Sequence record: LC739533.1
Direction: 5' to 3' (one strand)
DNA: 64,000 nt
Origin: Escherichia phage phiWec179
In this document: positions 3,178 through 41,416 of the stretch, piece after piece
Numbering within the stretch: the first letter of the stretch is position 1
How the letters are laid out: each line of letters begins with the position of its first letter
Notes under the pieces: generated by a model
Told to the model about the DNA's origin: nothing
Seen by the model: the letters and a program-made list of their open reading frames with translations, nothing else
Databases searched by the model: none
Position numbers and translations under genes: made by a program

Positions 3178-3428
3178 GCGTCCTCCCATTTGATCCACAG
3201 AATCATTTCTTCAACGTAAACCTCTTTACCTTTGTTATTGATGAAAGTGTATTCTATGAACTCCGCTGTATACTTTTTGTTGTATTGCTCCGCTGCTGGG
3301 ATCGGACACTTTGTCATACGTGTCTCAACCCATTGACGATGAATCGTTGCCTTGTTTTTGGGGTCAAACGGGTGTAAATAGTGTGGTTCCCCACCCTGAC
3401 TTTGCCCCATCTTATTTTTCTTTGCCAT
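3174..3428 (-). CDS. hypothetical protein
   Basis: GGAGG + ATG at 3428 (MAKKNKMGQ). Confidence 0.4.
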   Translation of the reverse strand: MAKKNKMGQSQGGEPHYLHPFDPKNKATIHRQWVETRMTKCPIPAAEQYNKKYTAEFIEYTFINNKGKEVYVEEMILWIKWEDA

Positions 3429-3756
3429 GCTGCACCTCCTCCAGACGGTCATACACCCAAGCAAGACGATCGAAGTTTTTGTGTTGGGTGCCGGACTTCT
3501 TCTCAATCCAATAACAAGGAATCCAACCTGACAGATCCCACTCGCCATCGAACGGATAGTTCCATTCTAAACCTTCCGCTTCAAACTGCTCTACCATTTC
3601 ATCAGAAAGGGAAATATACAAATCTTGGTCTTCCCCGCAATACACTTCCACTGCATGACACAAACCGCAAGCTTTGATGTTTTCGTGCGGATCTTGGCCC
3701 ATAGCCTGATCCAACCACCACTCATAAAACTCCAGTAAAGCTTCACTTGATCTCAT
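3412..3756 (-). CDS. paralog family A protein
   Basis: GGAGGGG + ATG at 3756; LLEFYEWWL...GLCHAV...EQF...YPF...WV motif. Confidence 0.5.
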   Translation of the reverse strand: MRSSEALLEFYEWWLDQAMGQDPHENIKACGLCHAVEVYCGEDQDLYISLSDEMVEQFEAEGLEWNYPFDGEWDLSGWIPCYWIEKKSGTQHKNFDRLAWVYDRLEEVQHGKEK

Positions 3757-4129
3757 TTTCTTCCCCTCCCCCTTTTCCAATAAGCGGCGAAGCCGCGATC
3801 ATCGACTTATAGACAACTTCGGCTGTTCGGGTTAGCCCCGTCCAGTCCTTCGCTGCCTCCAACATTTCTGGGGTAGGCTCTTTCGGGACCAAGACATACC
3901 CTTCTGGGACACACATCCCACTCTCTTTCTTTTCGGCTTCTTCCGACATAACTTGCCACACTCCATAGCTGCAATTCTCGAACAAACAATAGAGTTCAGA
4001 TCCTTCATCATCCACGACAATGAAACAGTTCTCATCTGCTACTTTGGCATTATAGATCCGACCTATGGTCAAATAGTCTCGGACATTAATAAACTTAGAG
4101 GCAAGAAACTTCACACGAATGTTTTTCAT
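3743..4129 (-). CDS. hypothetical protein
   Basis: tiled minus-strand ORF, 128 aa. Confidence 0.45.
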   Translation of the reverse strand: MKNIRVKFLASKFINVRDYLTIGRIYNAKVADENCFIVVDDEGSELYCLFENCSYGVWQVMSEEAEKKESGMCVPEGYVLVPKEPTPEMLEAAKDWTGLTRTAEVVYKSMIAASPLIGKGGGEENEIK

Positions 4130-4973: not shown

Positions 4974-5528
4974 TTAGTTCCAACTAATAATGATGTGTTT
5001 GATAACCCCAAAAACGCTATATTCCGCTGTTGTCAACGTTACATCTAAACCTTTTGCACGCAACATTGCGGCTACTACATTCACCCCTTCTTTCTGTTTA
5101 TCCATCTCTTCGTAAGAAGAAGGGCTGTTACACAAACCAAAACTCGAAGGTTCAAAATATTTTTGGAATTTTCCCTGTTCTGCATAATCTTCAATCTCCA
5201 GCAGAACACAGTCTACCATTTCAGTAAAATGGGAATTTGCTTGCAGTGCTTTACTACGTAGTTTATCACGTAAACTTCCCACAAACCCTTCCTGATCTTC
5301 TGTTTGCTCTACTTCACAGAAAGGATGAAGTTCAGCCCAGTCCCAAACGTCTCCCTCTAAAGCAAACGTTGTGTTGTAGTTGAAGAAGGTGCAACGTGGA
5401 AGTTCCCCGTTGAAAGAATCCTTCAGCAAAATGTATTTCTTACCATTTGCGTGGAAGAGTTCCCCTTTGATAACCTTGCCTTTCTGGATATCGCTGTCGG
5501 TGGAACGGGTGCAGATAAACTGTTTCAT
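4974..5528 (-). CDS. hypothetical protein
   Basis: GAGGAG + ATG at 5528; 184 aa. Confidence 0.5.
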   Translation of the reverse strand: MKQFICTRSTDSDIQKGKVIKGELFHANGKKYILLKDSFNGELPRCTFFNYNTTFALEGDVWDWAELHPFCEVEQTEDQEGFVGSLRDKLRSKALQANSHFTEMVDCVLLEIEDYAEQGKFQKYFEPSSFGLCNSPSSYEEMDKQKEGVNVVAAMLRAKGLDVTLTTAEYSVFGVIKHIIISWN

Positions 5529-5582: not shown

Positions 5583-5903
5583 TCAACCAATTATTTCTTC
5601 TGCTATACGTTCTTTTACCCAGTTCACACGATCCACATTCAAATGACAACGGCTTCTTTCCGCTTCTAAGGTGTACTTTCCAAAATTACTGTTGAAAGGC
5701 AACACCATAACCAAATCTTTGCGGTAGAACTGCTCATGCATTTCATCCAGTACAGGTTCGTATCGTTCGCTTTCCCCCATATCGTAAAAATCATAGAGGT
5801 TCGAGCACAAACCTGTGCAACGGGTGAACGGTTCACCTTCAGGAGCACCAGCTTCCAACCATGCCAAATACGTGCGGTAAAATGTTAATAGTTCTTCGCT
5901 CAT
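5583..5903 (-). CDS. paralog family A protein
   Basis: AAGGAGAG + ATG at 5903; LLTFYRTYLAWLEAGAP...GLCSNL...HEQF...LPFN...HLNVDRVNWVKERI. Confidence 0.55.
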   Translation of the reverse strand: MSEELLTFYRTYLAWLEAGAPEGEPFTRCTGLCSNLYDFYDMGESERYEPVLDEMHEQFYRKDLVMVLPFNSNFGKYTLEAERSRCHLNVDRVNWVKERIAEEIIG

Positions 5904-6112
5904 TTCCACTCTCCTTCATGATAGTAAACCTCAAAAGAATAGTAAGTGAACATGCTCATTGTAACACCTCCCATTTCTGGATCAACGGAAGTGTTGTTAT
6001 ACATGTCAACTACTGCCTGACCCGCTGCTTTGGCATGTGCTGCCGAATCACAGGCACAAACATCTTTCTCCCACGGAAACTTGCCATCATACTTAAGACG
6101 GACAATCCACAT
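5900..6112 (-). CDS. hypothetical protein
   Basis: tiled ORF, 70 aa. Confidence 0.4.
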   Translation of the reverse strand: MWIVRLKYDGKFPWEKDVCACDSAAHAKAAGQAVVDMYNNTSVDPEMGGVTMSMFTYYSFEVYYHEGEWK

Positions 6113-6114
6113 GA

Positions 6115-6342
6115 TTATTCCTCCATCTTAAACCATTGAGGGAATACTTTACGGAAGACACGAGTTGCTTCCAAAAGGAATTCCAATTCTTTTTCCCGAT
6201 CTGCGTTCCAACCGTGTACTTTAACATTGATCGCCAGTGCATCAGCGCGCTGACTCAATGCTTGGCAAATCGGATCGCGCAACACTACCGCATCATAAAA
6301 CTGACAAACAGCTTCAAGTTCATACCAATTATAAGCAGCCAT
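6115..6342 (-). CDS. hypothetical protein
   Basis: tiled ORF, 75 aa. Confidence 0.4.
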   Translation of the reverse strand: MAAYNWYELEAVCQFYDAVVLRDPICQALSQRADALAINVKVHGWNADREKELEFLLEATRVFRKVFPQWFKMEE

Positions 6343-6668
6343 TATTCATTCTCCTCTGCAATACGATCTTTAACCCAATTAATCCTGTCCACGTTCAGGT
6401 GACAGGCATCTGCATCTGACTCTAAAACATATGCATCGTAGTTCTCATTGAAAGGGAGTTCTTGACTCAACCCTTTATAGTGGAACTGTGCGTGCATCTC
6501 ATCTGACAAGGTTATTATAATGAGATTGAAGCCATCCCTGTGCACATAATCGAACAAGTTGGCACACAAACCCACACTTGGCAGAAACGGTCTGCCATAA
6601 GGAGCACCATTTTCAATCCATGCCAGATACTTTTTGTAAAACTTCATCAACTCTTCACTTGTTTTCAT
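6342..6668 (-). CDS. paralog family A protein
   Basis: GAGGTGG + ATG; LMKFYKKYLAWIENGAP...GLCANL...HAQF...LPFN...HLNVDRINWVKDRI. Confidence 0.55.
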   Translation of the reverse strand: MKTSEELMKFYKKYLAWIENGAPYGRPFLPSVGLCANLFDYVHRDGFNLIIITLSDEMHAQFHYKGLSQELPFNENYDAYVLESDADACHLNVDRINWVKDRIAEENE

Positions 6669-9510: not shown

Positions 9511-9701
9511 GATGGTTCTCCTTTATAAAGTAAACCTCTTAGTTCGCATTCTGCCACCAATAGACGGTTGGCTTGATTGTCCATAGACACGTCTATCTCC
9601 ACACTCCAAGCATTAATATACACTTCGTTGATCTTTGCGTCAAGCATTTGTGCAACTAAAGCTACGGCTCCAGCATATTCAAGTTTGATCTCTATAATCA
9701 T
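9507..9701 (-). CDS. hypothetical protein
   Basis: tiled ORF, 64 aa. Confidence 0.4.
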   Translation of the reverse strand: MIIEIKLEYAGAVALVAQMLDAKINEVYINAWSVEIDVSMDNQANRLLVAECELRGLLYKGEPS

Positions 9702-9985
9702 TTAAGATGATCCCTTACCCATTGGATACGGACAGCATTGAGATGAGAACCATCTTCCTTGTATTCTTTCGCGTAATCATCCCAATCCTTATTGAACGGG
9801 AGTTCTGGGTCCAACCCCGCAGCTTCAAACTGTTTTGACATTTCATACAGCAAATCATCATCACAATAACCGAAGAAATAGAGATTAGTACATAAACCCC
9901 ATTCACGGCGGAAAGGATTACCGTCTGGCGCTCCCGCGTCCACCCAATCTGCGTAAGCTTGATAGAACTCTCGTAATGTTTTCAT
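9698..9985 (-). CDS. paralog family A protein
   Basis: AAGGGGTGG + ATG at 9985; LREFYQAYADWVDAGAP...GLCTNL...SKQF...LPFN...HLNAVRIQWVRDHL. Confidence 0.55.
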   Translation of the reverse strand: MKTLREFYQAYADWVDAGAPDGNPFRREWGLCTNLYFFGYCDDDLLYEMSKQFEAAGLDPELPFNKDWDDYAKEYKEDGSHLNAVRIQWVRDHLK

Positions 9986-10140
9986 AACCACCCCTTATCT
10001 TGATAACCTTTAGAAAACCCTTCTTCCCACTCTTGAAACTGTTCAGGATGTTTATTGGGATCGTAAGGATTGTGGCGGCAAAACATGCCGAATTTATAAC
10101 CCTGTGCGTAGCCTTTATCGAATGCGTTCTTACTCTCCAT
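9982..10140 (-). CDS. small protein with ribosome-modulation-factor-like motif (tentative)
   Basis: GGAGAG + ATG at 10140; 52 aa; stop overlaps next start (TTATGA); KGYAQGY..G...NPY......W..GF pattern resembles Rmf. Confidence 0.35.
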   Translation of the reverse strand: MESKNAFDKGYAQGYKFGMFCRHNPYDPNKHPEQFQEWEEGFSKGYQDKGWL

Positions 10141-11552: not shown

Positions 11553-11765
11553 TTATAAAATTTCAAGTTCTTCGAGTGTTTCTTTCAGGGAAACTGGCAA
11601 ATCACACTCCACATCCAGCATCGAAACCAACCAAGAGGTGGCTTCGGCTAACTTCTGGTAATCATCATACAACACATAACCCCCTTCGTCAACCTCTACG
11701 ATGCAACGATAAGATGCAAAAGGGTTTTTGCTCATTTCTTCAATGTCATAACGTTCAACAACCAT
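11553..11765 (-). CDS. hypothetical protein
   Basis: ATG at 11765 (MVVERYD); shares YxDYQxLAxA segment with 8546..8992. Confidence 0.4.
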   Translation of the reverse strand: MVVERYDIEEMSKNPFASYRCIVEVDEGGYVLYDDYQKLAEATSWLVSMLDVECDLPVSLKETLEELEIL

Positions 11766-12067
11766 TATTTCACCTCTGACCAATCAACAGTAATACATTG
11801 ATAAGCTTGATGATTTATGTCCAATTCAATATAAACCACAAGCCCACGCTCGCGGAGTGCTGTTACCACCATATACATTAACTCGCGCTGTCTGGCGATC
11901 CCATCTTGGGAAAGAGGACGATTACAGAAGCCAAAATCAGAGGGCGTGAAATCCCGTTGGTAATTTCCCGCCCGTGCTTCTGAAAAACACGTCTCAATAA
12001 CCTCTTCAATAGGAAAACCGATGGAAGCTTCTTTGGCAATACTGCGTAACTGTTCGGTCAAATTCAT
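11765..12067 (-). CDS. hypothetical protein
   Basis: tiled ORF, 100 aa. Confidence 0.45.
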   Translation of the reverse strand: MNLTEQLRSIAKEASIGFPIEEVIETCFSEARAGNYQRDFTPSDFGFCNRPLSQDGIARQRELMYMVVTALRERGLVVYIELDINHQAYQCITVDWSEVK

Positions 12068-12132
12068 TTCATTTCTCCTCTCGTCTGTGTATGCAAAGAT
12101 TATCTACCAACGTGATCCTTATGTCAAGCTAT

Positions 12133-12645
12133 TTATTCAAAATAAACTTTAACTTGTGCCGTGCTGTAGCGATTGTAAATCTCGACCACGGCTTTAGCAT
12201 TATCTTCTTTATAGGATTCTGCCAGATCTTCCGCATCTCGGATATTTCCGGCAACACCTACGAGAACAAGATCCACCATTACAAGATATTTTTTATCTTC
12301 TGGACTCTCTTGAGAAGGCTCTTGCACTGGTTCTTCCTTTGGTTCTGGTGGCAAACCAACCTCTGCCTCAACATAAGAGTCAAACCAAGTGATATCGTTA
12401 AAATGCTTTAACTCGTGTTTGGACAGCAGCATACCACAATCAACGAAAGCACCTGCATCAGCTTCAAAGACATGCCCTTCAAATGTTTGGAACTTAACCA
12501 CATCCCCTTTTTCTGTTGTCTCCAACACCAGGAAGTGTTTTGGCCCCAGCAGATCTGAAATCTTTCGGTTCAGATTGACAGCTTCACGGAACGCATTGTA
12601 CTCTTTTGTATTTTTGAATTTATAAGAATGCCCTTGAATAAACAT
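12133..12645 (-). CDS. hypothetical protein (tandem paralog 1)
   Basis: 170 aa; same layout as 12658..13176 (N-domain, GLPP linker, C-terminal VEIY..STA). Confidence 0.5.
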   Translation of the reverse strand: MFIQGHSYKFKNTKEYNAFREAVNLNRKISDLLGPKHFLVLETTEKGDVVKFQTFEGHVFEADAGAFVDCGMLLSKHELKHFNDITWFDSYVEAEVGLPPEPKEEPVQEPSQESPEDKKYLVMVDLVLVGVAGNIRDAEDLAESYKEDNAKAVVEIYNRYSTAQVKVYFE

Positions 12646-12657
12646 AGTAGTCTCCTC

Positions 12658-13176
12658 TTAGTCAAATATCACATTACTTACGAGTTTCGCTGTGCTACGC
12701 AGAGTATAAATCTCCACAAGCTTCCCTGGACTCTCTTTCTTCGCTTTCGTGGCTCTTTCTTGTGCCTCTGAAAAAGATGATACAGTATGCACTACTACGT
12801 AGTCAACAATAACTGCAAACTTTTTAGGCACAATATCGGCATCAGGACGATCGTCGTGCGCAGAAACATCCTTACCTGGCTGTGGTGCCAGCGGCGGCAA
12901 GCCTGTCATTAACAGTGCACCTCCATCAAAGAAATATCCGATTTCATCGTGTGCAATAAGGAAGCGATCCATTTGAGCATCACCTACTCCCTGATCCCAG
13001 AACACTTTCCTATCTTCTACGAAGATGATAAGGGACAGGACATTCCCATGAACATCCGTGTTAACTGGTTGGAACCAGTGATCCCCAATCGCTTCAGCCA
13101 ATTGTTTAGAGATTGATTGAAACAACTCTTGGTACGTGCCTTGTCTGAAACGATATACATTATTTGTTTTAAACAT
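12658..13176 (-). CDS. hypothetical protein (tandem paralog 2)
   Basis: 172 aa; paralog of 12133..12645. Confidence 0.5.
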   Translation of the reverse strand: MFKTNNVYRFRQGTYQELFQSISKQLAEAIGDHWFQPVNTDVHGNVLSLIIFVEDRKVFWDQGVGDAQMDRFLIAHDEIGYFFDGGALLMTGLPPLAPQPGKDVSAHDDRPDADIVPKKFAVIVDYVVVHTVSSFSEAQERATKAKKESPGKLVEIYTLRSTAKLVSNVIFD

Positions 13177-13198
13177 TAGTGTCTCCTCTTGTATTAAA

Positions 13199-13657
13199 TT
13201 ATTGTTCTACTTCACGCAGCCACGCTAAAGCCTCTTCTGGGGATTTATCGAAGTCGTTGAGCAGTTCCTGCTCCAACTCCTCTTTCATTTCATTCAGCAC
13301 TTGTAGTTGACGTGCCTTTTTCCACAAGGCTACACGATAATCAACACCTTGTGGTGCTTCTTCTGCCACTTTTACATTACCTGTCGGGCAGCGAGGAAGA
13401 TAGTCTTCAATATCTTCCAAGGCACGGCGATAATTGGGGTCCATGTAGTTCACACGAACACGATTACATTCTAACAAAGTGGCACGGAACACTTCATAAC
13501 GTGTTTCGGATAGAATGTGTTTCACACAGACAGCACCAGTATCTTCTGAAATTACGCTATACACTTCCAGTAGGCTGGAGTTTCTCTTGACATAATCTGT
13601 AACGCATTGCACATATGCTCCCAATATTGTGGAAGCTCTCGCTGGTTTTTCGCTCAT
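13199..13657 (-). CDS. hypothetical protein
   Basis: tiled ORF, 152 aa. Confidence 0.5.
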   Translation of the reverse strand: MSEKPARASTILGAYVQCVTDYVKRNSSLLEVYSVISEDTGAVCVKHILSETRYEVFRATLLECNRVRVNYMDPNYRRALEDIEDYLPRCPTGNVKVAEEAPQGVDYRVALWKKARQLQVLNEMKEELEQELLNDFDKSPEEALAWLREVEQ

Positions 13658-13902: not shown

Positions 13903-14133
13903 TTAATGAACAATTTCATATTCGTGAGGAAGGAAAACATAATCTTCCCCTTCACCTGCATCTTCTTCATCCCAGAAGAAACCTGGTATCTCAATCATCT
14001 TCGAAAAGCGCACATGCGCCAACCCACTATACCCTATCTGTGCATTCAGCACAACGGGTAACTCTGCACCAATCAGACCTACATACCCGCAAGCGGTTTC
14101 AATACGAATTTTCATACGTTTTATGTTATGCAT
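13903..14133 (-). CDS. hypothetical protein
   Basis: tiled ORF, 76 aa. Confidence 0.4.
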   Translation of the reverse strand: MHNIKRMKIRIETACGYVGLIGAELPVVLNAQIGYSGLAHVRFSKMIEIPGFFWDEEDAGEGEDYVFLPHEYEIVH

Positions 14134-14406: not shown

Positions 14407-14775
14407 TTATTCAATGCAAGCATTATTTGCATCTTCGATGCGATCTTTCACCCATTGAAGACGTAACGTGTTGGTATGACACGCCAAGTCTATACACTCT
14501 GAAAGGTAATCCATGCAATCTGCATTGAACGGAAGATTGTAGTCCAGTTTTGCACATGTAAATTGTTTCCTCATTTCGTATTTCAAACTATCCAACAAAC
14601 GATCACGCCATCTTTTATCTTCTTCTCTAATTACCTCACCAACAAAATCATCTACATAATCTACCAGACAACCACACAAGCCACTCGTTGTGCGATTCAT
14701 TGCCGGATGGTTGGCAATCCATGCTTTATAGAATCGTATTAATGTTGCACTGCTCAACGGAATGTTACTTTTCAT
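14407..14775 (-). CDS. paralog family A protein
   Basis: AAGGAGG + ATG at 14775; LIRFYKAWI...GLCGCL...RKQF...LPFN...RLQWVKDRI. Confidence 0.5.
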   Translation of the reverse strand: MKSNIPLSSATLIRFYKAWIANHPAMNRTTSGLCGCLVDYVDDFVGEVIREEDKRWRDRLLDSLKYEMRKQFTCAKLDYNLPFNADCMDYLSECIDLACHTNTLRLQWVKDRIEDANNACIE

Positions 14776-15130
14776 TATTGCCTCCTTCACAATCCTGGAT
14801 ACGATCTTCTACCCATTGCACACGCAGTCGGTTGAGATGACATTTTCTGTTTTCACATTCTTCCTCGTAGTCGAAGAAGTTGGTATTGAAAGGTGTGGTT
14901 TTAGACAACCCTGCATACATAAACTGTACCAGCATTTCATCAGCTAAAGCTTCACGCATCTCCCAAAACTGATCCACATCGGCACCATGTATCGGACACA
15001 ATACGTCCCATGCAAAATTGCCTAAACATACGCACAAGCCATTCGCTGTGTTCACCAACTCACTACGGTGAGCCATCCAATTCTTATAGAACATCAGAAG
15101 AGTATCACTACTCAAGGGAATATTTTTCAT
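14765..15130 (-). CDS. paralog family A protein
   Basis: AAGGAG + ATG; LLMFYKNWM...GLCVCL...VQF...TPFN...HLNRLRVQWVEDRI. Confidence 0.55.
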   Translation of the reverse strand: MKNIPLSSDTLLMFYKNWMAHRSELVNTANGLCVCLGNFAWDVLCPIHGADVDQFWEMREALADEMLVQFMYAGLSKTTPFNTNFFDYEEECENRKCHLNRLRVQWVEDRIQDCEGGNNEK

Positions 15131-15131
15131 A

Positions 15132-15512
15132 TCAGGCTCCTTTACGATTATGGAAACAATCTTTCACTCGCTCTTGCACCCACTCTACACGAAGCTTGTT
15201 TTCATGCGCTCTGTTGTGGTTATGCTCTTGCACATAGTCTTCGTAGTTCACATTAAAGGGAACACTGACAGACAATCCTGCACAACGAAATTGTTTCTTC
15301 ATTTCTTTTAATGTCGCATCACTTAGGGCACAAAGCTGATTTGCCTGTTCCTCACTGAAGTTACTGTCCCACATCTCATCCCAGATAAAACTATCCAAGC
15401 ATACACATAACCCATGCCTTGTGCGCTCTTTAGTATGATGATCAGCAAGCCAACTTTCATAGAAAGCTAACAACACCGGACTACTCAACGGAACATTTTT
15501 ACTCTCTTGCAT
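15132..15512 (-). CDS. paralog family A protein
   Basis: AGGAG + ATG at 15512; LLAFYESWL...GLCVCL...KKQF...VPFN...RVEWVQERV. Confidence 0.5.
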   Translation of the reverse strand: MQESKNVPLSSPVLLAFYESWLADHHTKERTRHGLCVCLDSFIWDEMWDSNFSEEQANQLCALSDATLKEMKKQFRCAGLSVSVPFNVNYEDYVQEHNHNRAHENKLRVEWVQERVKDCFHNRKGA

Positions 15513-15873
15513 GATAATCTCCTCTCTTGGTTTCATGACAAACATCCTAATTCTCAACGAGGAACATCTTACGATCAATCCTCGGCAATTACAATTCATT
15601 TATCATCGCTTTTCCCTATCAATTATTCTATATATACCTGTTATTTTTGACACCCCCTTTGGTCAAATATTAATCGGCAAAATATCTGGGGGTACTCTAT
15701 AAAATGATGCCCCCTGTTCCTGCAATTTATCGAGGAGAATATCATTCGACTATCATCGGCAAAGAGACAGAAAAGCCTTTGGTAGCAAGGATTTATGGCG
15801 AGTACGTCAGGACTGCTTAACGCGAATTTTTCGGCCCCTCCACTTCTGCGAGCCGGAATCCTCAAATATCAAT

Positions 15874-15892
15874 GAGAATAATTATCATTATC
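15874..15892. promoter_or_regulatory. Fur-box-like 19-bp site GAGAATAATTATCATTATC
   Basis: 16 of 19 matches to GATAATGATAATCATTATC by eye; half-site TGAGAAT shared with 30352..30465. Confidence 0.3.
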
Positions 15893-16055
15893 ATTCGTAT
15901 TCAATAACTTAGGCGATCTTTTCCCCTGCTATAAGGTCGGGCCTAACTTAACCATCACTTTTCAAACAATCCTTTATCAATCAACTACTTAACAACCTAA
16001 ACATATGATTACTACGGTGTAAAGGTGCCGCCCATAACAGACTACCTATAAAATA

Positions 16056-16075
16056 GATGAGAATGATTATTATTC
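16056..16075. promoter_or_regulatory. second operator-like site (GATGAGAATGATTATTATTC)
   Basis: same half-site family; preceded by CTATAAAAT as at 15687. Confidence 0.25.
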
Positions 16076-16269
16076 AGACAATTCTTACAACAAATCGACC
16101 AACAAATCAAGAATTTTCTTATTTTTATTCACGTTTAAGAGAACGTGCTCAACATTCCGCTACGCGTAACGGTTCGCCCCCAAAAGATTAGCCTTTGCTT
16201 TCCTGTATATTTATACACTATGTGCAAGGTGTCGCTACACGCTCGCCTTGCCCCGCATAATCCTTCACT

Positions 16270-16498
16270 GTGCTAATGATTTCATAGTGCAACAATAACA
16301 CTTATTATTATATTACGCTTAATTATTCTTACATACAATGCTAATAATAAGCCAGCGTAATTAGTGTAAGCGTAATACGCTTGCAATAATTGCAAGCTAC
16401 ATAATCACAAGAAATAACCATCACCGATGGTTATGATTGTGGGGGTGTAGTTGGCTTATTATTAGCTCGCTACGTGTCCGGCGTAGCGTGCTAATGAT
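16270..16498. repeat. nested repeat/palindrome element
   Basis: direct repeat GTGCTAATGAT at 16270 and 16488; 14-bp inverted repeat GCTAATAATAAGCC (16340-16353 / 16453-16466); perfect palindromes GCTTGCAATAATTGCAAGC (16379-16397) and ATAACCATCaccGATGGTTAT (16414-16434). Confidence 0.6.
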
Positions 16499-16577
16499 GA
16501 CTCTATGAATGATTCATTTTGCAATTATTACAGTCTTCACTATTTCGGCAATAGTTATTATTTTAATGGTTTCATTT

Positions 16578-16737
16578 GTTATCGTTAGTTAGTTGGTTGT
16601 TTTGTCGTGTTATCGTTATCTTGCTTAGTATTCATCATGGTTTGATTGTTTGTCGTTATCAATCATCTTTCTATTATTCCTTTGATTATGATTAGTTTGC
16701 TTATTGTTTTAAGTCGTTAGTTGGTTAGTTGTTGCGA
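16578..16737. repeat. iteron-like direct repeats
   Basis: TCGTTAGTT(AGTT)GGTT at 16581 and 16713; GTTATCGTTA / TGTCGTTATC recurring in T-rich ORF-free DNA. Confidence 0.45.
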
Positions 16738-17011
16738 ACTGTTATCAACATTATAGTTATGCACTTATATTGCATAGATACGCAAGGGTAGATGATAATG
16801 GTTATCATTGCACTGGAAAGGAAGAAAACAGCCTTTTTCGGTTGTTTGTTGTTGGTTGTTGATCGATTTTAACCGCTCTAAATAGCTCTCTAATAGCCTG
16901 TTGCCCTGGGGTGTATGGTTATTCGTTTAATGGTTGATTAGCTCGATACCGCGATCTATTCAGTTTTGTTCTGTGTCGGTTTTTCATAGGCGGAATCTAT
17001 CAACATTGTTC

Positions 17012-17052
17012 GGGCAAAAAGAAAGGGCGCTTTGTGCGCCCTTGTTTTGTTG
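17012..17052 (-). terminator. rho-independent terminator closing the minus-strand small-gene array
   Basis: hairpin AAGGGCGCtttgtGCGCCCTT flanked by T-runs on both strands, just past stop of 17057..17476. Confidence 0.6.
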
Positions 17053-17056
17053 TCAA

Positions 17057-17476
17057 TTATAACGCTTCATAGATTGAGTAGATCCGGTTTGCCAGGTCAT
17101 TACGAAAGCGGAATTTTTCATCACGTTTAATCATCAGATCCTTAAAACCGCATTCTTTCAAGGCTTCATTAACTTTACTGCGGCATACTTTCATATTGTC
17201 CTGCGCGTCACCAATAAACTTATTGCTATGATGCATTGTTTTGATCTCTTCCTCCAGGACCAGGGCAACTACACGGATCGGATCAAGCTGATACGCGGTA
17301 ACATCCATGCGGCATTGTAAACGGCTTTTAACATCGTTTACCGGATACACTGCAACCTCTTCCCCGTCAACGTTCACAATAACCAGCTTACCATCAATTT
17401 CGAAGCCTTTCGCGGCGCTACCGTGGCAAAAAGCGTTATCGAAGGAGTAAGCCGGATTATTTGATTTAATGTTCAT
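17057..17476 (-). CDS. hypothetical protein
   Basis: ATG at 17476; 139 aa. Confidence 0.5.
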   Translation of the reverse strand: MNIKSNNPAYSFDNAFCHGSAAKGFEIDGKLVIVNVDGEEVAVYPVNDVKSRLQCRMDVTAYQLDPIRVVALVLEEEIKTMHHSNKFIGDAQDNMKVCRSKVNEALKECGFKDLMIKRDEKFRFRNDLANRIYSIYEAL

Positions 17477-31632: not shown

Positions 31633-31998
31633 TTAGTCCATCCACCAGTAGCCATAAACTGCGTCTGCGTCGATGAGTTTGTGTTTGTTGTTCCGCATGT
31701 AGTCTAAGATAAGTAGACGTTTATTGTATCTGGAGAGATTATGACCCTCTTTTCCGCCATAGTCAAAATATTTTGCAAGACTTTTACACTCAAACAAAAT
31801 CAGTTCGGGAGTTTCTTCACATTGGTCTGTCTGGTACACTTGACGGATGATCATGTATACGTCATCGTCTTCCGCTAAGTGCTCTACTGGTCCACACCCA
31901 GCAGGAATAAATTCATAGTCCCATCGAATCAGATGTTTCTCTACTGCTTCAAAGAAATCCATTTTTTCGCTACGCATGATCTGAACATCAATTAACAT
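31633..31998 (-). CDS. hypothetical protein
   Basis: 121 aa. Confidence 0.5.
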   Translation of the reverse strand: MLIDVQIMRSEKMDFFEAVEKHLIRWDYEFIPAGCGPVEHLAEDDDVYMIIRQVYQTDQCEETPELILFECKSLAKYFDYGGKEGHNLSRYNKRLLILDYMRNNKHKLIDADAVYGYWWMD

Positions 31999-33004
31999 AA
32001 TTTTCCTCCTGTCTCATTATTCCACCTGCTTGGTTGATAGCACTTAAGACAACAGCCAAATCCTCACGCAGGAAGGTTTCACTATGACCGTCTTTCATGT
32101 GCAACGCTTCCACACAGCCGATAGACGGTAGGATCTGATCAGTCTTAGATTTTAGCTTACTCTCTAACGCCCTGCAAGCCTGGTAGGACGGCAGATCAAA
32201 CAATGCTACACGTTGCATAAAGTAGTTATTATTTGCATTCTGAATCTTCAAACGTATATCACTATCCTTTGCAATCCCCAGCTTGAAAGCTCCCGTATCT
32301 TCTCCATACTCATCAAGGATAACGTTGATGTAAAATTCTTGCTGTGATCTGCCTTTACATTCAGAACAACCATTCCCACTTAGATACTTATTAGGTGTTA
32401 TCGTTTGTTCTCCGTGCTCACTACATAAATATTTAAACTTAGACATGGTTCCCACCTTACCAACGAACCCTATAAACTGGTCCCCTCGTTCCTGGCAAGC
32501 TTCAGTCATACGGAAAATCCATTGCGCAGGAGTGTAACGATGGTTTTTAGAACAACGGCAAGCAAGCAGCCCATCTCTAAGACTGCTCCTCGTTACTTCA
32601 AACCTACCGTTACACACGCCAGCCTTTACATATTCGTCATGAGAACATACGGAACACTTAACTATCCAATAAGCCGCCCATCCTTTACTATCTAATCTAT
32701 CACTACGATAATACTCACGCGGAACGTTATCAGGACACGCTTTGTTAAAGGTTGTGATATGGATTGAATCATCAATTAAACATGTTTGCCTTATTGCTTC
32801 CACCCTACAACCTTTACAACCACTTCCTATTTTAGCATTATCTATAGAAGTTGTTCTCCATTCCCCATGTATAGAACATTCACAGGTTAGTTTAGTGCGT
32901 GCCCCCTTCCATTCACCATGCCACCCCGTAATGGTCCACGGTTTATCCTGGTAAGCTTGTTCTATTTCTTCCTGATATTCCTCCCAACTTTTAGCCCTCA
33001 TCAT
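31988..33004 (-). CDS. zinc-ribbon repeat + T5orf172 (GIY-YIG-like) domain protein, homing-endonuclease-like
   Basis: repeated C..C...G.GC..C zinc-ribbon units; C-terminal FKLGIAKDSDIRLK...HMKDGHSETF; paralog of 36572..37525. Confidence 0.5.
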   Translation of the reverse strand: MMRAKSWEEYQEEIEQAYQDKPWTITGWHGEWKGARTKLTCECSIHGEWRTTSIDNAKIGSGCKGCRVEAIRQTCLIDDSIHITTFNKACPDNVPREYYRSDRLDSKGWAAYWIVKCSVCSHDEYVKAGVCNGRFEVTRSSLRDGLLACRCSKNHRYTPAQWIFRMTEACQERGDQFIGFVGKVGTMSKFKYLCSEHGEQTITPNKYLSGNGCSECKGRSQQEFYINVILDEYGEDTGAFKLGIAKDSDIRLKIQNANNNYFMQRVALFDLPSYQACRALESKLKSKTDQILPSIGCVEALHMKDGHSETFLREDLAVVLSAINQAGGIMRQEENYVN

Positions 33005-36571: not shown

Positions 36572-37525
36572 ATGAAATACGAAGATTTTAAACAAATAGT
36601 TAAAGACGATGTGGTATTTGAGAACTTACAGGAAGGTTGTGAAGTCTTAGGTTGGACAGAAAGAGATAGAAACTTTGCAAAAATATACGTAATACGTTGT
36701 AGTGTTTGTGCCAAAGACCCCGAAATGTATGGAGATGGTCTTTTTACAGCTACAAAAGGGCGTTTAGTGAAAGGTCAGAAATGTTGCGCGTGCGCTGTAT
36801 CCTTTAAATACAGTCAAAACCAACACCTAATTCTGCTAAACAGGCATTTAAGTGTCGCAGGGTACAGCATAGTTTCTATTGGTGCTTGGGAGTGTTCTAA
36901 GACGAGAATAGAGTTTAGTTGTGAGAATGGACACACGAAGAACAGAACCCTGGCTCAAGCAAAGGTAGTAGAACCTTGTAAACAGTGTCTTGAAGAAGGC
37001 TGTACAAAACACAAACAAGATGAGGCAGAGGCAAAAATTATGAAGATAATAGAAGATAAATGTTTACCTTATGTATTTGTAGGGTGGGATACTTCTTACA
37101 AGAATGTAACTTCAAAATTCAACCTCATCTGTTCGGATCACGGTTTAAAAACAATAAGATACGCTTGTTTCCTAAATGGTCATTTTTGTAACGAGTGTTC
37201 TGGTAGAAATTGCCTAAGTCTTTATTTATTAGGAGTTTATGATAGAGACTTGTTGGTAGGTTTAAAATTTGGCATCTCTCAGAGTCCAGTAAGAAGGGTT
37301 CAACAGTTAAATAAAAGGAACTTATTTAAATGTAAAATACTACAGATTTGGACTTTTACATCACATGATCAAGCTGTACGGATGGAAACATTATTAAAGA
37401 ACACATTGCGAACTGGAATATTTACTAAAAGAGAGATGAAAGATGGTCATACAGAAACCACAGAAGTTACTAATTTAGAAACCATAATGGACCTTATGAC
37501 CTCATCTCATGGATTGGTTAGTTAA
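36572..37525 (+). CDS. zinc-ribbon repeat + T5orf172 (GIY-YIG-like) domain protein, homing-endonuclease-like
   Basis: CSVCAKDP..CCAC, CKQCLEEGC, CNECSG cysteine pairs; C-terminal LKFGISQSPVRRVQQL...EMKDGHTETTEV. Confidence 0.5.
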   Translation: MKYEDFKQIVKDDVVFENLQEGCEVLGWTERDRNFAKIYVIRCSVCAKDPEMYGDGLFTATKGRLVKGQKCCACAVSFKYSQNQHLILLNRHLSVAGYSIVSIGAWECSKTRIEFSCENGHTKNRTLAQAKVVEPCKQCLEEGCTKHKQDEAEAKIMKIIEDKCLPYVFVGWDTSYKNVTSKFNLICSDHGLKTIRYACFLNGHFCNECSGRNCLSLYLLGVYDRDLLVGLKFGISQSPVRRVQQLNKRNLFKCKILQIWTFTSHDQAVRMETLLKNTLRTGIFTKREMKDGHTETTEVTNLETIMDLMTSSHGLVS

Positions 37526-40629: not shown

Positions 40630-40803
40630 ATGCAAGACAAGAAAAACAATGTTCGTTATGCTTTGTACGGACGTATGGGCGTAGACTGCGAATGGAGACT
40701 TCTGTTACAGCGTATTCCCTCTTATCAAGAAGCTATGACGAAGAGAGAACATTATAAGAAGACGTGGAGACACGTTGTTTGCAAACATTACGAGGAGGCA
40801 TAA
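40630..40803 (+). CDS. small protein (57 aa)
   Basis: GGAGGGAGT + ATG; stop TAA overlaps next ATG (TAATG); below ORF-track cutoff. Confidence 0.35.
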   Translation: MQDKKNNVRYALYGRMGVDCEWRLLLQRIPSYQEAMTKREHYKKTWRHVVCKHYEEA

Positions 40804-41111
40804 TGAGCACATTATCAACAGCAGTCAAGTTCCACCAGGATTATGAAGAAGCTGTCAAAGATGCTGACAATCCTTCCTCATTAGTGTTTGAGGATCGTAC
40901 AGGTTTGAAGTGGGTTAAATCTTTCGATGAGATCTATTTCTGGTATCCGCAGGGAGCCACAAGCAATAGTTCTCTGTATAGCTACGAACTGGAATACCGT
41001 GGCCCTGTAGACGAAGATGAAAACTTTATCATGTATTTCGTAAATAATGGTTGCGGTGAAACGTTTAATGTTGTATTCTCTAAAGCAGATGAGTCTGACG
41101 AGGAGGTGTAA
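40803..41111 (+). CDS. hypothetical protein (tandem paralog 1)
   Basis: GAGGAGG + ATG at 40803; FIMYFVNNGCGETFNVVF shared with next gene. Confidence 0.5.
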   Translation: MSTLSTAVKFHQDYEEAVKDADNPSSLVFEDRTGLKWVKSFDEIYFWYPQGATSNSSLYSYELEYRGPVDEDENFIMYFVNNGCGETFNVVFSKADESDEEV

Positions 41112-41416
41112 TGCAGTACAATACGACTTTAAGTTTGGCAGTTGCAGCCCACATGCTGTACAATGATTCTGTGAAGGATGAGTTGTCGCCTGTGAGTTTA
41201 GCTTTCTATCTGATAGAAAGGGATTGGATGTTCTCTGGTGAGGACGAAATCTACTACGTAAATTCGCGCGGTTTTATTGAAAGTTTTGAACTTGAACATC
41301 GCGCACCGACAGCAGAAGATGATCGTTTTATTATGTTCTGTGTAAATGATGGTTACGGAGAGGTATATGACGTAGTATTCTTCAAAAACCGACAGAAGAC
41401 TGAAGAGGAATTCTAA
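41111..41416 (+). CDS. hypothetical protein (tandem paralog 2)
   Basis: FIMFCVNDGYGEVYDVVFF; paralog of 40803..41111. Confidence 0.5.
   Translation: MQYNTTLSLAVAAHMLYNDSVKDELSPVSLAFYLIERDWMFSGEDEIYYVNSRGFIESFELEHRAPTAEDDRFIMFCVNDGYGEVYDVVFFKNRQKTEEEF

Follow-up and report, generated by a model that had tools for sequence, protein, structure and literature searches.

A probable pair of diverged GoF-family genes in a variable slot of Escherichia phage phiWec179

Two adjacent genes on the minus strand of Escherichia phage phiWec179, termed here A and B, very probably encode old, diverged members of the GoF/Frd.2/MotB.1 family, each consisting of a GoF-like N-terminal module (the N-module), a linker and a lineage-specific C-terminal module (the C-module). 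They occupy a slot of variable gene content that has undergone recombination at the linkers and, as we infer, would act as early RNA-metabolism takeover proteins. The stretch analysed (the window: 64,000 nucleotides of sequence record LC739533.1) is 100% identical over its whole length to phiWec181/phiWec186 (LC739534/5), which are myoviruses of ~154 kb within the subfamily Stephanstirmvirinae and for which the genus "Wecvirus" was recently proposed (PMC12695924). Gene A (12133..12645; 170 residues; BDU12379) and gene B (12658..13176; 172 residues; BDU12380) are separated by 12 nucleotides; each is supported by an open reading frame (ORF), by matches to PHROG profiles and by GenBank annotation, which in LC739534 describes both products as hypothetical proteins. 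This assignment would extend the GoF family, described only in Tevenvirinae in 2025, to the phi92/phAPEC8-like phages, in which the GoF N-module is found in tandem arrays of variable copy number and is accompanied by a conserved C-module of its own. The A/B pair in itself reveals no new mechanism.

Module architecture and relationship to T4 GoF

A first-pass annotation of the window had reported adjacent ORFs of ~170 residues at 12133-13176, which are present on the minus strand at exactly these coordinates, and had proposed that they are paralogs. Pairwise BLASTP bears this out: residues 1-165 of the two proteins align end to end at 24% identity over 178 columns (44.3 bits, E = 7e-11, composition-adjusted), a score well above chance, and the pair is also recovered at E = 1.4e-8 in an all-against-all comparison of 400 window ORFs. 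The notion that this similarity is due to chance or to composition, or that the ORFs are not real genes, has the low identity (24%) in its favor and otherwise nothing of substance; it is already refuted and its probability is negligible, inasmuch as the full-length alignment score was obtained with composition adjustment, both proteins match the same PHROG profiles, and the ratio of non-synonymous to synonymous divergence (dN/dS) between orthologs (0.2-0.3), strong ribosome-binding sites (RBSs) and the GenBank annotation of both mark A and B as real genes.

The two proteins were also said to share a layout (an N-terminal domain, a Pro/Glu linker around GLPP and a C-terminal VEIY..STA), and the sequences conform to this. 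AlphaFold2 models of both copies, based on a 17-sequence family alignment, likewise consist of two folded modules with a disordered stretch (residues 91-116) between them. The A N-module (residues 1-90; 12376..12645), which is delimited by a hidden Markov model (HMM) and by the structure model, is a predicted GoF-like beta-barrel with helices: 5-6 short strands (at residues 7-10, 38-43, 49-54, 59-62, 72-74 and 87-90) together with helices span residues 7-90, with a predicted local distance difference test (pLDDT) score of ~70, and it aligns in register with GoF residues 5-88. It is followed by an acidic, Pro/Glu-rich linker that is predicted to be disordered (residues 91-116; 12298..12375; pLDDT ~35; isoelectric point (pI) 4.05) and by a C-module (residues 117-170; 12136..12297; pLDDT 72-83; C-module HMM match) predicted to adopt a beta-beta-alpha-beta arrangement and carrying a K..VEIY motif. 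B is organized similarly: an N-module (residues 1-88; 12913..13176; N-module HMM E = 2e-35), a Pro-rich linker of predicted disorder (residues 89-116; 12829..12912; pLDDT 27-45) and a beta-beta-alpha-beta C-module with the same K..VEIY motif (residues 117-172; 12661..12828; pLDDT 62-79; C-module HMM match), although the B model is the poorer of the two. The best-predicted part of the models is the C-module. The GLPP-containing Pro/Glu linkers read EVGLPPEPKEEPVQEP in A and TGLPPLAPQPGKD in B, and the C-terminal modules end in VVEIYNRYSTAQ and LVEIYTLRSTAK, respectively. The C-modules of the two copies are opposite in charge, that of B being basic (pI 9.5) and that of A acidic (4.75).

Invariant N-module positions are all hydrophobic or glycine. 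Within the C-module, a unit of ~54 residues with the signature A...K.......VE[IV]Y, the invariant positions (A numbering) are A142, K146, V154, E155 and Y157, of which the conserved polar residues Lys146, Glu155 and Tyr157 are candidates for mutagenesis.

GoF (ComC-alpha) has been defined genetically for decades, and goF genetics includes the suppression of rho alleles. GoF, together with Frd.2 and MotB.1, constitutes a family of Tevenvirinae early proteins with an "LSm-like fold" (Kim et al. 2025, PMC12152347), whose members begin with a predicted bent, antiparallel beta-sheet of five strands (an SH3/LSm-like barrel), from which a flexible linker leads to C-terminal domains that are small and vary; the homology between their N-terminal domains was originally found through deep profile searches, and the proteins are abundant, early and non-essential in the laboratory (PMC12152347).

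Judged by profile comparison, the N-module (~88 residues) of A and B and the T4 GoF N-terminal domain are homologous, a relationship that the first-pass annotation did not recognise. An N-module HMM built solely from Stephanstirmvirinae sequences, without T4 sequences, matches GoF residues 5-89 with E = 4e-8 (4e-9 against three T4 proteins only), Frd.2 with E = 1e-3 and MotB.1 with E = 3e-3; hhalign aligns the N-module to GoF over 80 in-register columns (E = 5e-4); and the conserved N-module residues (F, Y.F, F, G...F, F) are in register with GoF residues 5-89. The same connection can be made by way of intermediates: A matches phi92 gp003 by BLASTP (5e-18), which in turn matches GoF (6e-6, 31% identity over 87 residues), and the first N-module of a 261-residue protein of phage vB_Ec-G1 (G1) matches GoF directly (2e-7). 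Among PHROG profiles, A matches phrog_3710 (E = 3e-16, with residues 1-170 aligned to positions 4-191 of the 193-position profile) and phrog_622 (E = 2e-8), and B matches phrog_3710 (E = 1e-11, N-terminal part only), phrog_5804 over its full length and phrog_622 (E = 1.5e-4); weaker N-terminal matches of both are to PHROGs labelled "goF mRNA metabolism modulator". T4 GoF is itself a member of phrog_622 (E = 5e-38), as is Frd.2, and its N-terminal ~115 residues also match phrog_3710 (8e-12). Some relatives already carry the label "goF" from PHROG-based pipelines. Finally, Foldseek matches to predicted structures of family members from T4-like phages are significant, so that a shared fold is supported, at the level of models.

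Further searches with the full proteins yielded little else: no Pfam family matched A or B above curated cut-offs, a sequence search of the PDB with the family profile gave no credible match, and among window ORFs of at least 45 residues there is no third N- or C-module (best other E = 0.056). A match to the MurF C-terminus (E = 0.019-0.026, profile positions 1-50), lacking structural or contextual support, was treated as chance, and Foldseek matches of ~40 columns to a maize ribosome-inactivating protein, a phiKZ baseplate protein and proteins designed de novo probably stem from the C-module's generic beta-beta-alpha-beta form.

Thus A and B resemble the T4 proteins in their homologous N-module, in a plan comprising a predicted barrel, a flexible acidic linker and a small C-terminal domain, in being small acidic proteins encoded among small non-structural genes, and in the presence of multiple paralogs per genome. 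They differ in occurring in Stephanstirmvirinae myoviruses rather than in Tevenvirinae, in being arranged in tandem within one variable slot (the T4 genes are scattered), in not keeping the suppressor site D25, in a pairwise similarity to GoF that falls below BLASTP significance, and in having a C-module that was undetected in GoF, in Frd.2 and in MotB.1, none of which is matched by the C-module HMM. With FeoA, other SH3-like barrels and Hfq/LSm folds they share a resemblance of fold class only (FeoA E = 0.39), without sequence similarity or a metal- or RNA-binding motif.

Among PHROGs the C-module occurs only inside phrog_3710, positions 139-191 of which are matched by the isolated C-modules of A (E = 1e-4) and B (E = 0.011); it has no Pfam match above curated cut-offs and no sequence match in the PDB. 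Sub-threshold Pfam matches of relatives' C-modules (DUF7336, E = 0.0013; MoaE, E = 0.034) were set aside, and a likeness in sequence pattern to HicB/UPF0150-like or YegP-like beta-beta-beta-alpha units was considered but dropped, no tool having supported it.

When 1.84 billion representative proteins were searched exhaustively with HMMER, using the full-length profile, only 20 clusters were retrieved at E <= 1e-3, nearly all of 145-172 residues (word-indexed protein searches returned close relatives only), and within a phage genome collection the family is found in 120 records, essentially all of them Stephanstirmvirinae; a locus scan of IMG/VR returned only 3 loci. An exception is the Straboviridae phage Serratia 92A1, in whose 167-residue protein the N-module is clear and the C-terminus, though not detected by the C-module HMM, is similar in pattern. 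The VE[IV]Y C-module was detected here only in Stephanstirmvirinae. The A-type lineage is narrower still, having been found here only in Wec phages, phage PsgM04F and a few metagenome contigs.

The variable slot and the age of the pair

A and B are bounded by two anchor genes, both on the minus strand: upstream, a 152-residue gene (13199..13657; phrog_14944) orthologous to phi92 gp001 and, downstream, a 100-residue gene (11765..12067; phrog_15686) orthologous to phi92 gp005. Between these anchors, relatives carry from one to three family genes, in differing composition. In phi92 the slot holds a single family gene (gp003), ~1 kb from the left terminal repeat; in phAPEC8 it holds a 145-residue form (an N-module plus an unrelated tail) and a 149-residue form (N+C); in WPEC4, forms of 145, 151 and 151 residues; in G1, forms of 145, 261 (N-N-C) and 152 residues; and in phiWec181 and PsgM04F, A and B. 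The proteins phi92 gp003 and phAPEC8 gp0024/gp0025, and likewise PHROG 3710, thus belong to the same family as A and B, with the same N+C architecture and the same position between gp001-like and gp005-like anchors, but A and B are only 21-33% identical overall to these proteins, and the Phapecoctavirus slot differs in its 145-residue N+tail, 261-residue N-N-C and 149-152-residue N+C forms. PHROG 3710 relatives in G1 and in phage Eryne are labelled 'goF mRNA metabolism modulator' by PHROG-based annotation and are uncharacterised.

Divergence within the slot exceeds that of its surroundings: between phiWec181 and Phapecoctaviruses the flanking proteins are 56-71% identical but the slot proteins only 21-40%. 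(The upstream anchor is 56-71% identical to its Phapecoctavirus orthologs and 56% to gp001; for the downstream anchor the corresponding values are 65-66% and, for gp005, 39%.)

The first-pass annotation had ascribed the pair to local duplication and divergence. Tandem paralogy is upheld; a simple, recent duplication in this genome is not, on account of N-module identity, trees, DNA repeats and slot contents. Recent tandem duplication within this genome, followed by rapid divergence of the copies, would be in keeping with two adjacent genes of equal length on the same strand that share a three-part layout, near-identical RBS/start regions and a GLPP motif in both linkers, and whose C-modules (36% identical; 42% between B and the relative P0004) resemble each other slightly more closely than do most other pairs of C-modules. 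In their N-modules, however, A and B are just 25% identical, no nearer than each is to the N-terminal domain of T4 GoF (23-24%). In a neighbour-joining tree of N-modules, B groups with the 152-residue type of G1/WPEC4 and with the relative P0018 (bootstrap 77-84) and A with the relative P0019 (96); in neither the N-module nor the C-module trees are A and B ever sisters, and each has a closer relative in another phage than in its own neighbour. Nor does any DNA similarity persist in the gene bodies: the sole DNA repeat common to A and B is the 21-nucleotide RBS/start region, which includes the Shine-Dalgarno sequence AAGAGGAGAC of B (13181..13190, minus strand) and that of A (12650..12659, minus strand; direct repeat D1), the latter overlapping the TAA stop codon of B. 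Because multi-copy arrays fill the same slot throughout the subfamily, the duplication or duplications must be older than this genome. Recent duplication is therefore very improbable and already largely refuted; the pair instead reflects an old, subfamily-wide multigene array subject to gain, loss and recombination.

Module exchange is most evident in phAPEC8, whose 149-residue protein is, from its sequence, an unambiguous linker-joined chimera: residues 1-90 share 94.6% identity with the 152-residue gene of G1 and residues 91-149 share 96.6% with the C-module of the 261-residue gene of G1, whereas the cross-comparisons reach only 25-37%, and the junction lies at QEEP within the linker. Similar discontinuities separate phiWec181 from PsgM04F. 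Synonymous divergence is 0.38-0.44 in the B N-module and linker, falls to 0.02-0.03 in the B C-module and the A N-module, and rises again to 0.40 in the A C-module; nucleotide identity switches sharply at ~12827 (the linker/C-module boundary, that is, the 3' edge of the B linker) and again across 12347-12228 (the A linker and early C-module). In the C-module tree, moreover, B falls outside the well-supported pair (the 152-residue gene of G1 and P0018) that its N-module joins. As recombination junctions fall in or next to linkers, N- and C-modules would have been re-paired, and slot turnover would combine such recombination with gene gain and loss. Natural domain-swap variants of this kind (N-N-C, N+tail and N/C chimeras) could serve to separate the roles of the two modules.

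Three further observations concern small-scale rearrangement in and around the slot. The relative P0017 (141 residues, from a 1301-nucleotide ENA metagenome contig) is a further apparent fusion, in which a start of ~50 residues, resembling window ORF 13903-14133 on the minus strand (MHN[IM]KRMKIRIE...), is joined, in frame, to the latter half of an N-module and a C-module of the 261-residue type; it could be a deletion chimera of natural origin or an artefact of assembly. The C-terminal ~48 residues (MLDVECDLPVSLKETLEELEIL) of the minus-strand ORF at 11553-11783 match positions 98-145 of phrog_22975 (E = 2e-8), which correspond to the tail of the 145-residue GoF-like protein of phAPEC8, G1 and WPEC4; by this match, a tail module that is fused to the GoF N-module in Phapecoctaviruses is found here behind another N-terminus, on the far side of the 100-residue anchor. 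PsgM04F has an extra 63-residue gene (at 3148-3339 of L004) at window position ~13661, the junction of the 152-residue and a 79-residue gene, which amounts to an indel of ~190 nucleotides relative to phiWec181 and is another instance of small-gene gain or loss in the arm.

Selection, expression and possible functions

Purifying selection acts on both genes: compared with PsgM04F, A has a dN/dS of 0.30 and B one of 0.20, and their dN values are two- to threefold those of the flanking genes. They are situated in an arm of small genes with strong RBSs and sigma-70-like promoters, the orthologous slot lying ~1 kb from the left end of phi92. Given the strong Shine-Dalgarno sites, which are identical in the two genes, the spacing of 12 nucleotides and this proximity to the genome end in phi92, A and B would be translated efficiently from one polycistronic early transcript. 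A sigma-70-like promoter predicted by consensus scan (TTGACA-17-GATAAT, 11/12 consensus; 12099..12127, minus strand) falls within the 65-nucleotide gap downstream of A and is putatively part of the next transcription unit, in which case it would mark the end of the A/B unit. A search for expression data found none.

Each protein consists of an N-module of ~88 residues, predicted to form an SH3/LSm-like five-stranded beta-barrel, an acidic Pro/Glu linker of predicted disorder of ~27 residues and a C-module. The hydrophobic or glycine character of all conserved N-module positions suggests binding proteins rather than enzymes, and the opposite charges of the two C-modules suggest that the copies would have different partners or specificities. 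By analogy with GoF, A and B are probably early, abundant binding proteins of the GoF family; they would modulate the host RNA-metabolism machinery, or RNA itself, during takeover, their most likely role thus being the modulation of host RNA metabolism or mRNA fate.

Several points weigh against this picture, and they bear on each of its parts. As regards homology, direct BLASTP of A and B against T4 GoF is non-significant (E = 8.6 and 0.24), even though the residues align in register, and hhalign assigns a probability of just 32%, so that the link to GoF rests on profiles and intermediates. As regards structure, confidence in the models is moderate to low (mean pLDDT: A, 62; B, 52) and Foldseek found no significant match in the PDB (best FeoA, E = 0.39); for these two reasons the SH3/LSm-like fold is not independently established here. 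As regards recombination, phiWec181 and PsgM04F are mosaic relative to each other throughout the arm, at a scale of a few hundred bases, and the switch points at linkers could therefore partly be coincidence; this, together with reliance on a handful of genomes, makes a concentration of breakpoints in linkers a suggestion and not a proven fact. As regards function, early expression is deduced from position and gene style only; the family proteins are all acidic (pI 4.4-5.5), which disfavours general RNA binding; wild-type GoF is without demonstrated activity; neither it nor wild-type MotB.1 stabilised a reporter RNA, which only GoF(D25Y) did (PMC12152347); and D25 of GoF is replaced by Ala in A and by Ile in B (the equivalent of G84 is Gly in B and Lys in A).

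These last points bear also upon a more specific proposal, namely, that A and B are Hfq-like RNA chaperones whose N-modules assemble into LSm rings and bind RNA directly. The description of the family's N-terminal domain as LSm-like and the stabilisation of an mRNA by GoF(D25Y) (PMC12152347) lend it some plausibility, but neither GoF nor MotB.1 yields a confident homodimer or hexamer model with AlphaFold3, and wild-type GoF has no strong effect on RNA (PMC12152347). A and B themselves are acidic, with no conserved basic patch among N-module positions that are hydrophobic or glycine; they have no Pfam LSM or Hfq match, no Hfq appears among PDB fold or sequence matches, and the best (non-significant) PDB neighbour, FeoA, has an SH3-like protein-interaction fold. 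Direct RNA chaperoning is accordingly improbable.

The main functional rival to modulation of RNA metabolism is a counter-defence or host-range cassette, in which, on a common GoF-like barrel scaffold, fast-changing surfaces and C-modules would neutralise or escape variable host factors (defence systems or nucleases, for example), and an arms race would then underlie copy-number change and module swapping. Such a role does not conflict with the family assignment and is in line with the low identity of slot proteins compared to their flanks (21-40% versus 56-71%), with one to three genes per slot, with chimeras and mosaic exchange, with the opposite charges of the two C-modules, and with the observation that the GoF-family genes, though abundant, can be dispensed with in the laboratory (PMC12152347). 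Conversely, a PADLOC search of A and B gave no match to a defence-system protein at E <= 1, a literature search yielded only the 2025 family paper and nothing that connects GoF-family proteins with defence, dN/dS values of 0.2-0.3 point to short-term selection that is purifying, not diversifying, and many small genes in such phage arms turn over similarly without a known defence role. On balance such a cassette is rather unlikely. A related idea, advanced here only tentatively and thought to have the chances well against it, is that the slot is a "polymorphic effector" cassette, in which a conserved GoF-like barrel is re-paired with alternative C-modules by exchange in the low-complexity Pro/Glu linker, which would act as an inbuilt joint for swapping, and A and B, opposite in C-module charge, represent two specificities; if so, each lineage would carry different early host-takeover or counter-defence specificities.

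Other features of the arm

Paralogy is pervasive in this arm. A second pair noted in the first-pass annotation, at 40803-41416 on the plus strand, likewise consists of true paralogs (43% identity between 40803-41108 and 41111-41413, E = 2e-20, both phrog_7812), encoded by genes at 40764-41111 and 41111-41416, the first gene's stop codon overlapping the start of its successor. A family larger than that of A and B, phrog_2510, has at least 8 members (100-155 residues) scattered along the arm, all on the minus strand (1948-2337, 3412-3780, 5583-5909, 6342-6668, 9698-9991, 14407-14790, 14765-15130 and 15132-15599); its members are 26-54% identical pairwise, with E-values down to 8e-39, are related to phi92 gp006 and to the N-terminal part of gp010 ('conserved hypothetical'), and include three in tandem just upstream of A and B. 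Other paralog pairs in the window (E from 1e-7 to 2e-12) are 13903-14133/9289-9510 and 57751-58086/59108-59389. On opposite strands, 36572-37525 (plus) and 31988-33004 (minus) encode paralogs of 317 and 338 residues, and the 100-residue anchor at 11765-12067 matches the C-terminal half of a 184-residue ORF at 4974-5528. A neighbouring gene has a sub-threshold Pfam match to DUF5071.

The host labels of some related records look doubtful. PsgM04F (L004, OR584014), a 'Pseudomonas phage', is 93% identical to phiWec181 across this region, and several MG0656xx 'Campylobacter phage' records encode a gp003 that is 100% identical to that of the E. coli phage phi92; the Wecvirus paper groups the Campylobacter records with Justusliebigvirus (PMC12695924).

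Upstream of the three tandem phrog_2510 genes, ~1.5 kb (~15600-17060) is without annotated coding sequence in the GenBank record. This stretch ends at a bidirectional GC-rich hairpin terminator (17023-17043), beyond which lies a near-consensus sigma-70-like promoter (17550-17522, minus strand), and at ~16 kb the GC skew changes from ~-0.22 to ~-0.02. On the far side of the stretch are dozens of very small genes (40-130 residues) separated by gaps of ~70-200 nucleotides.

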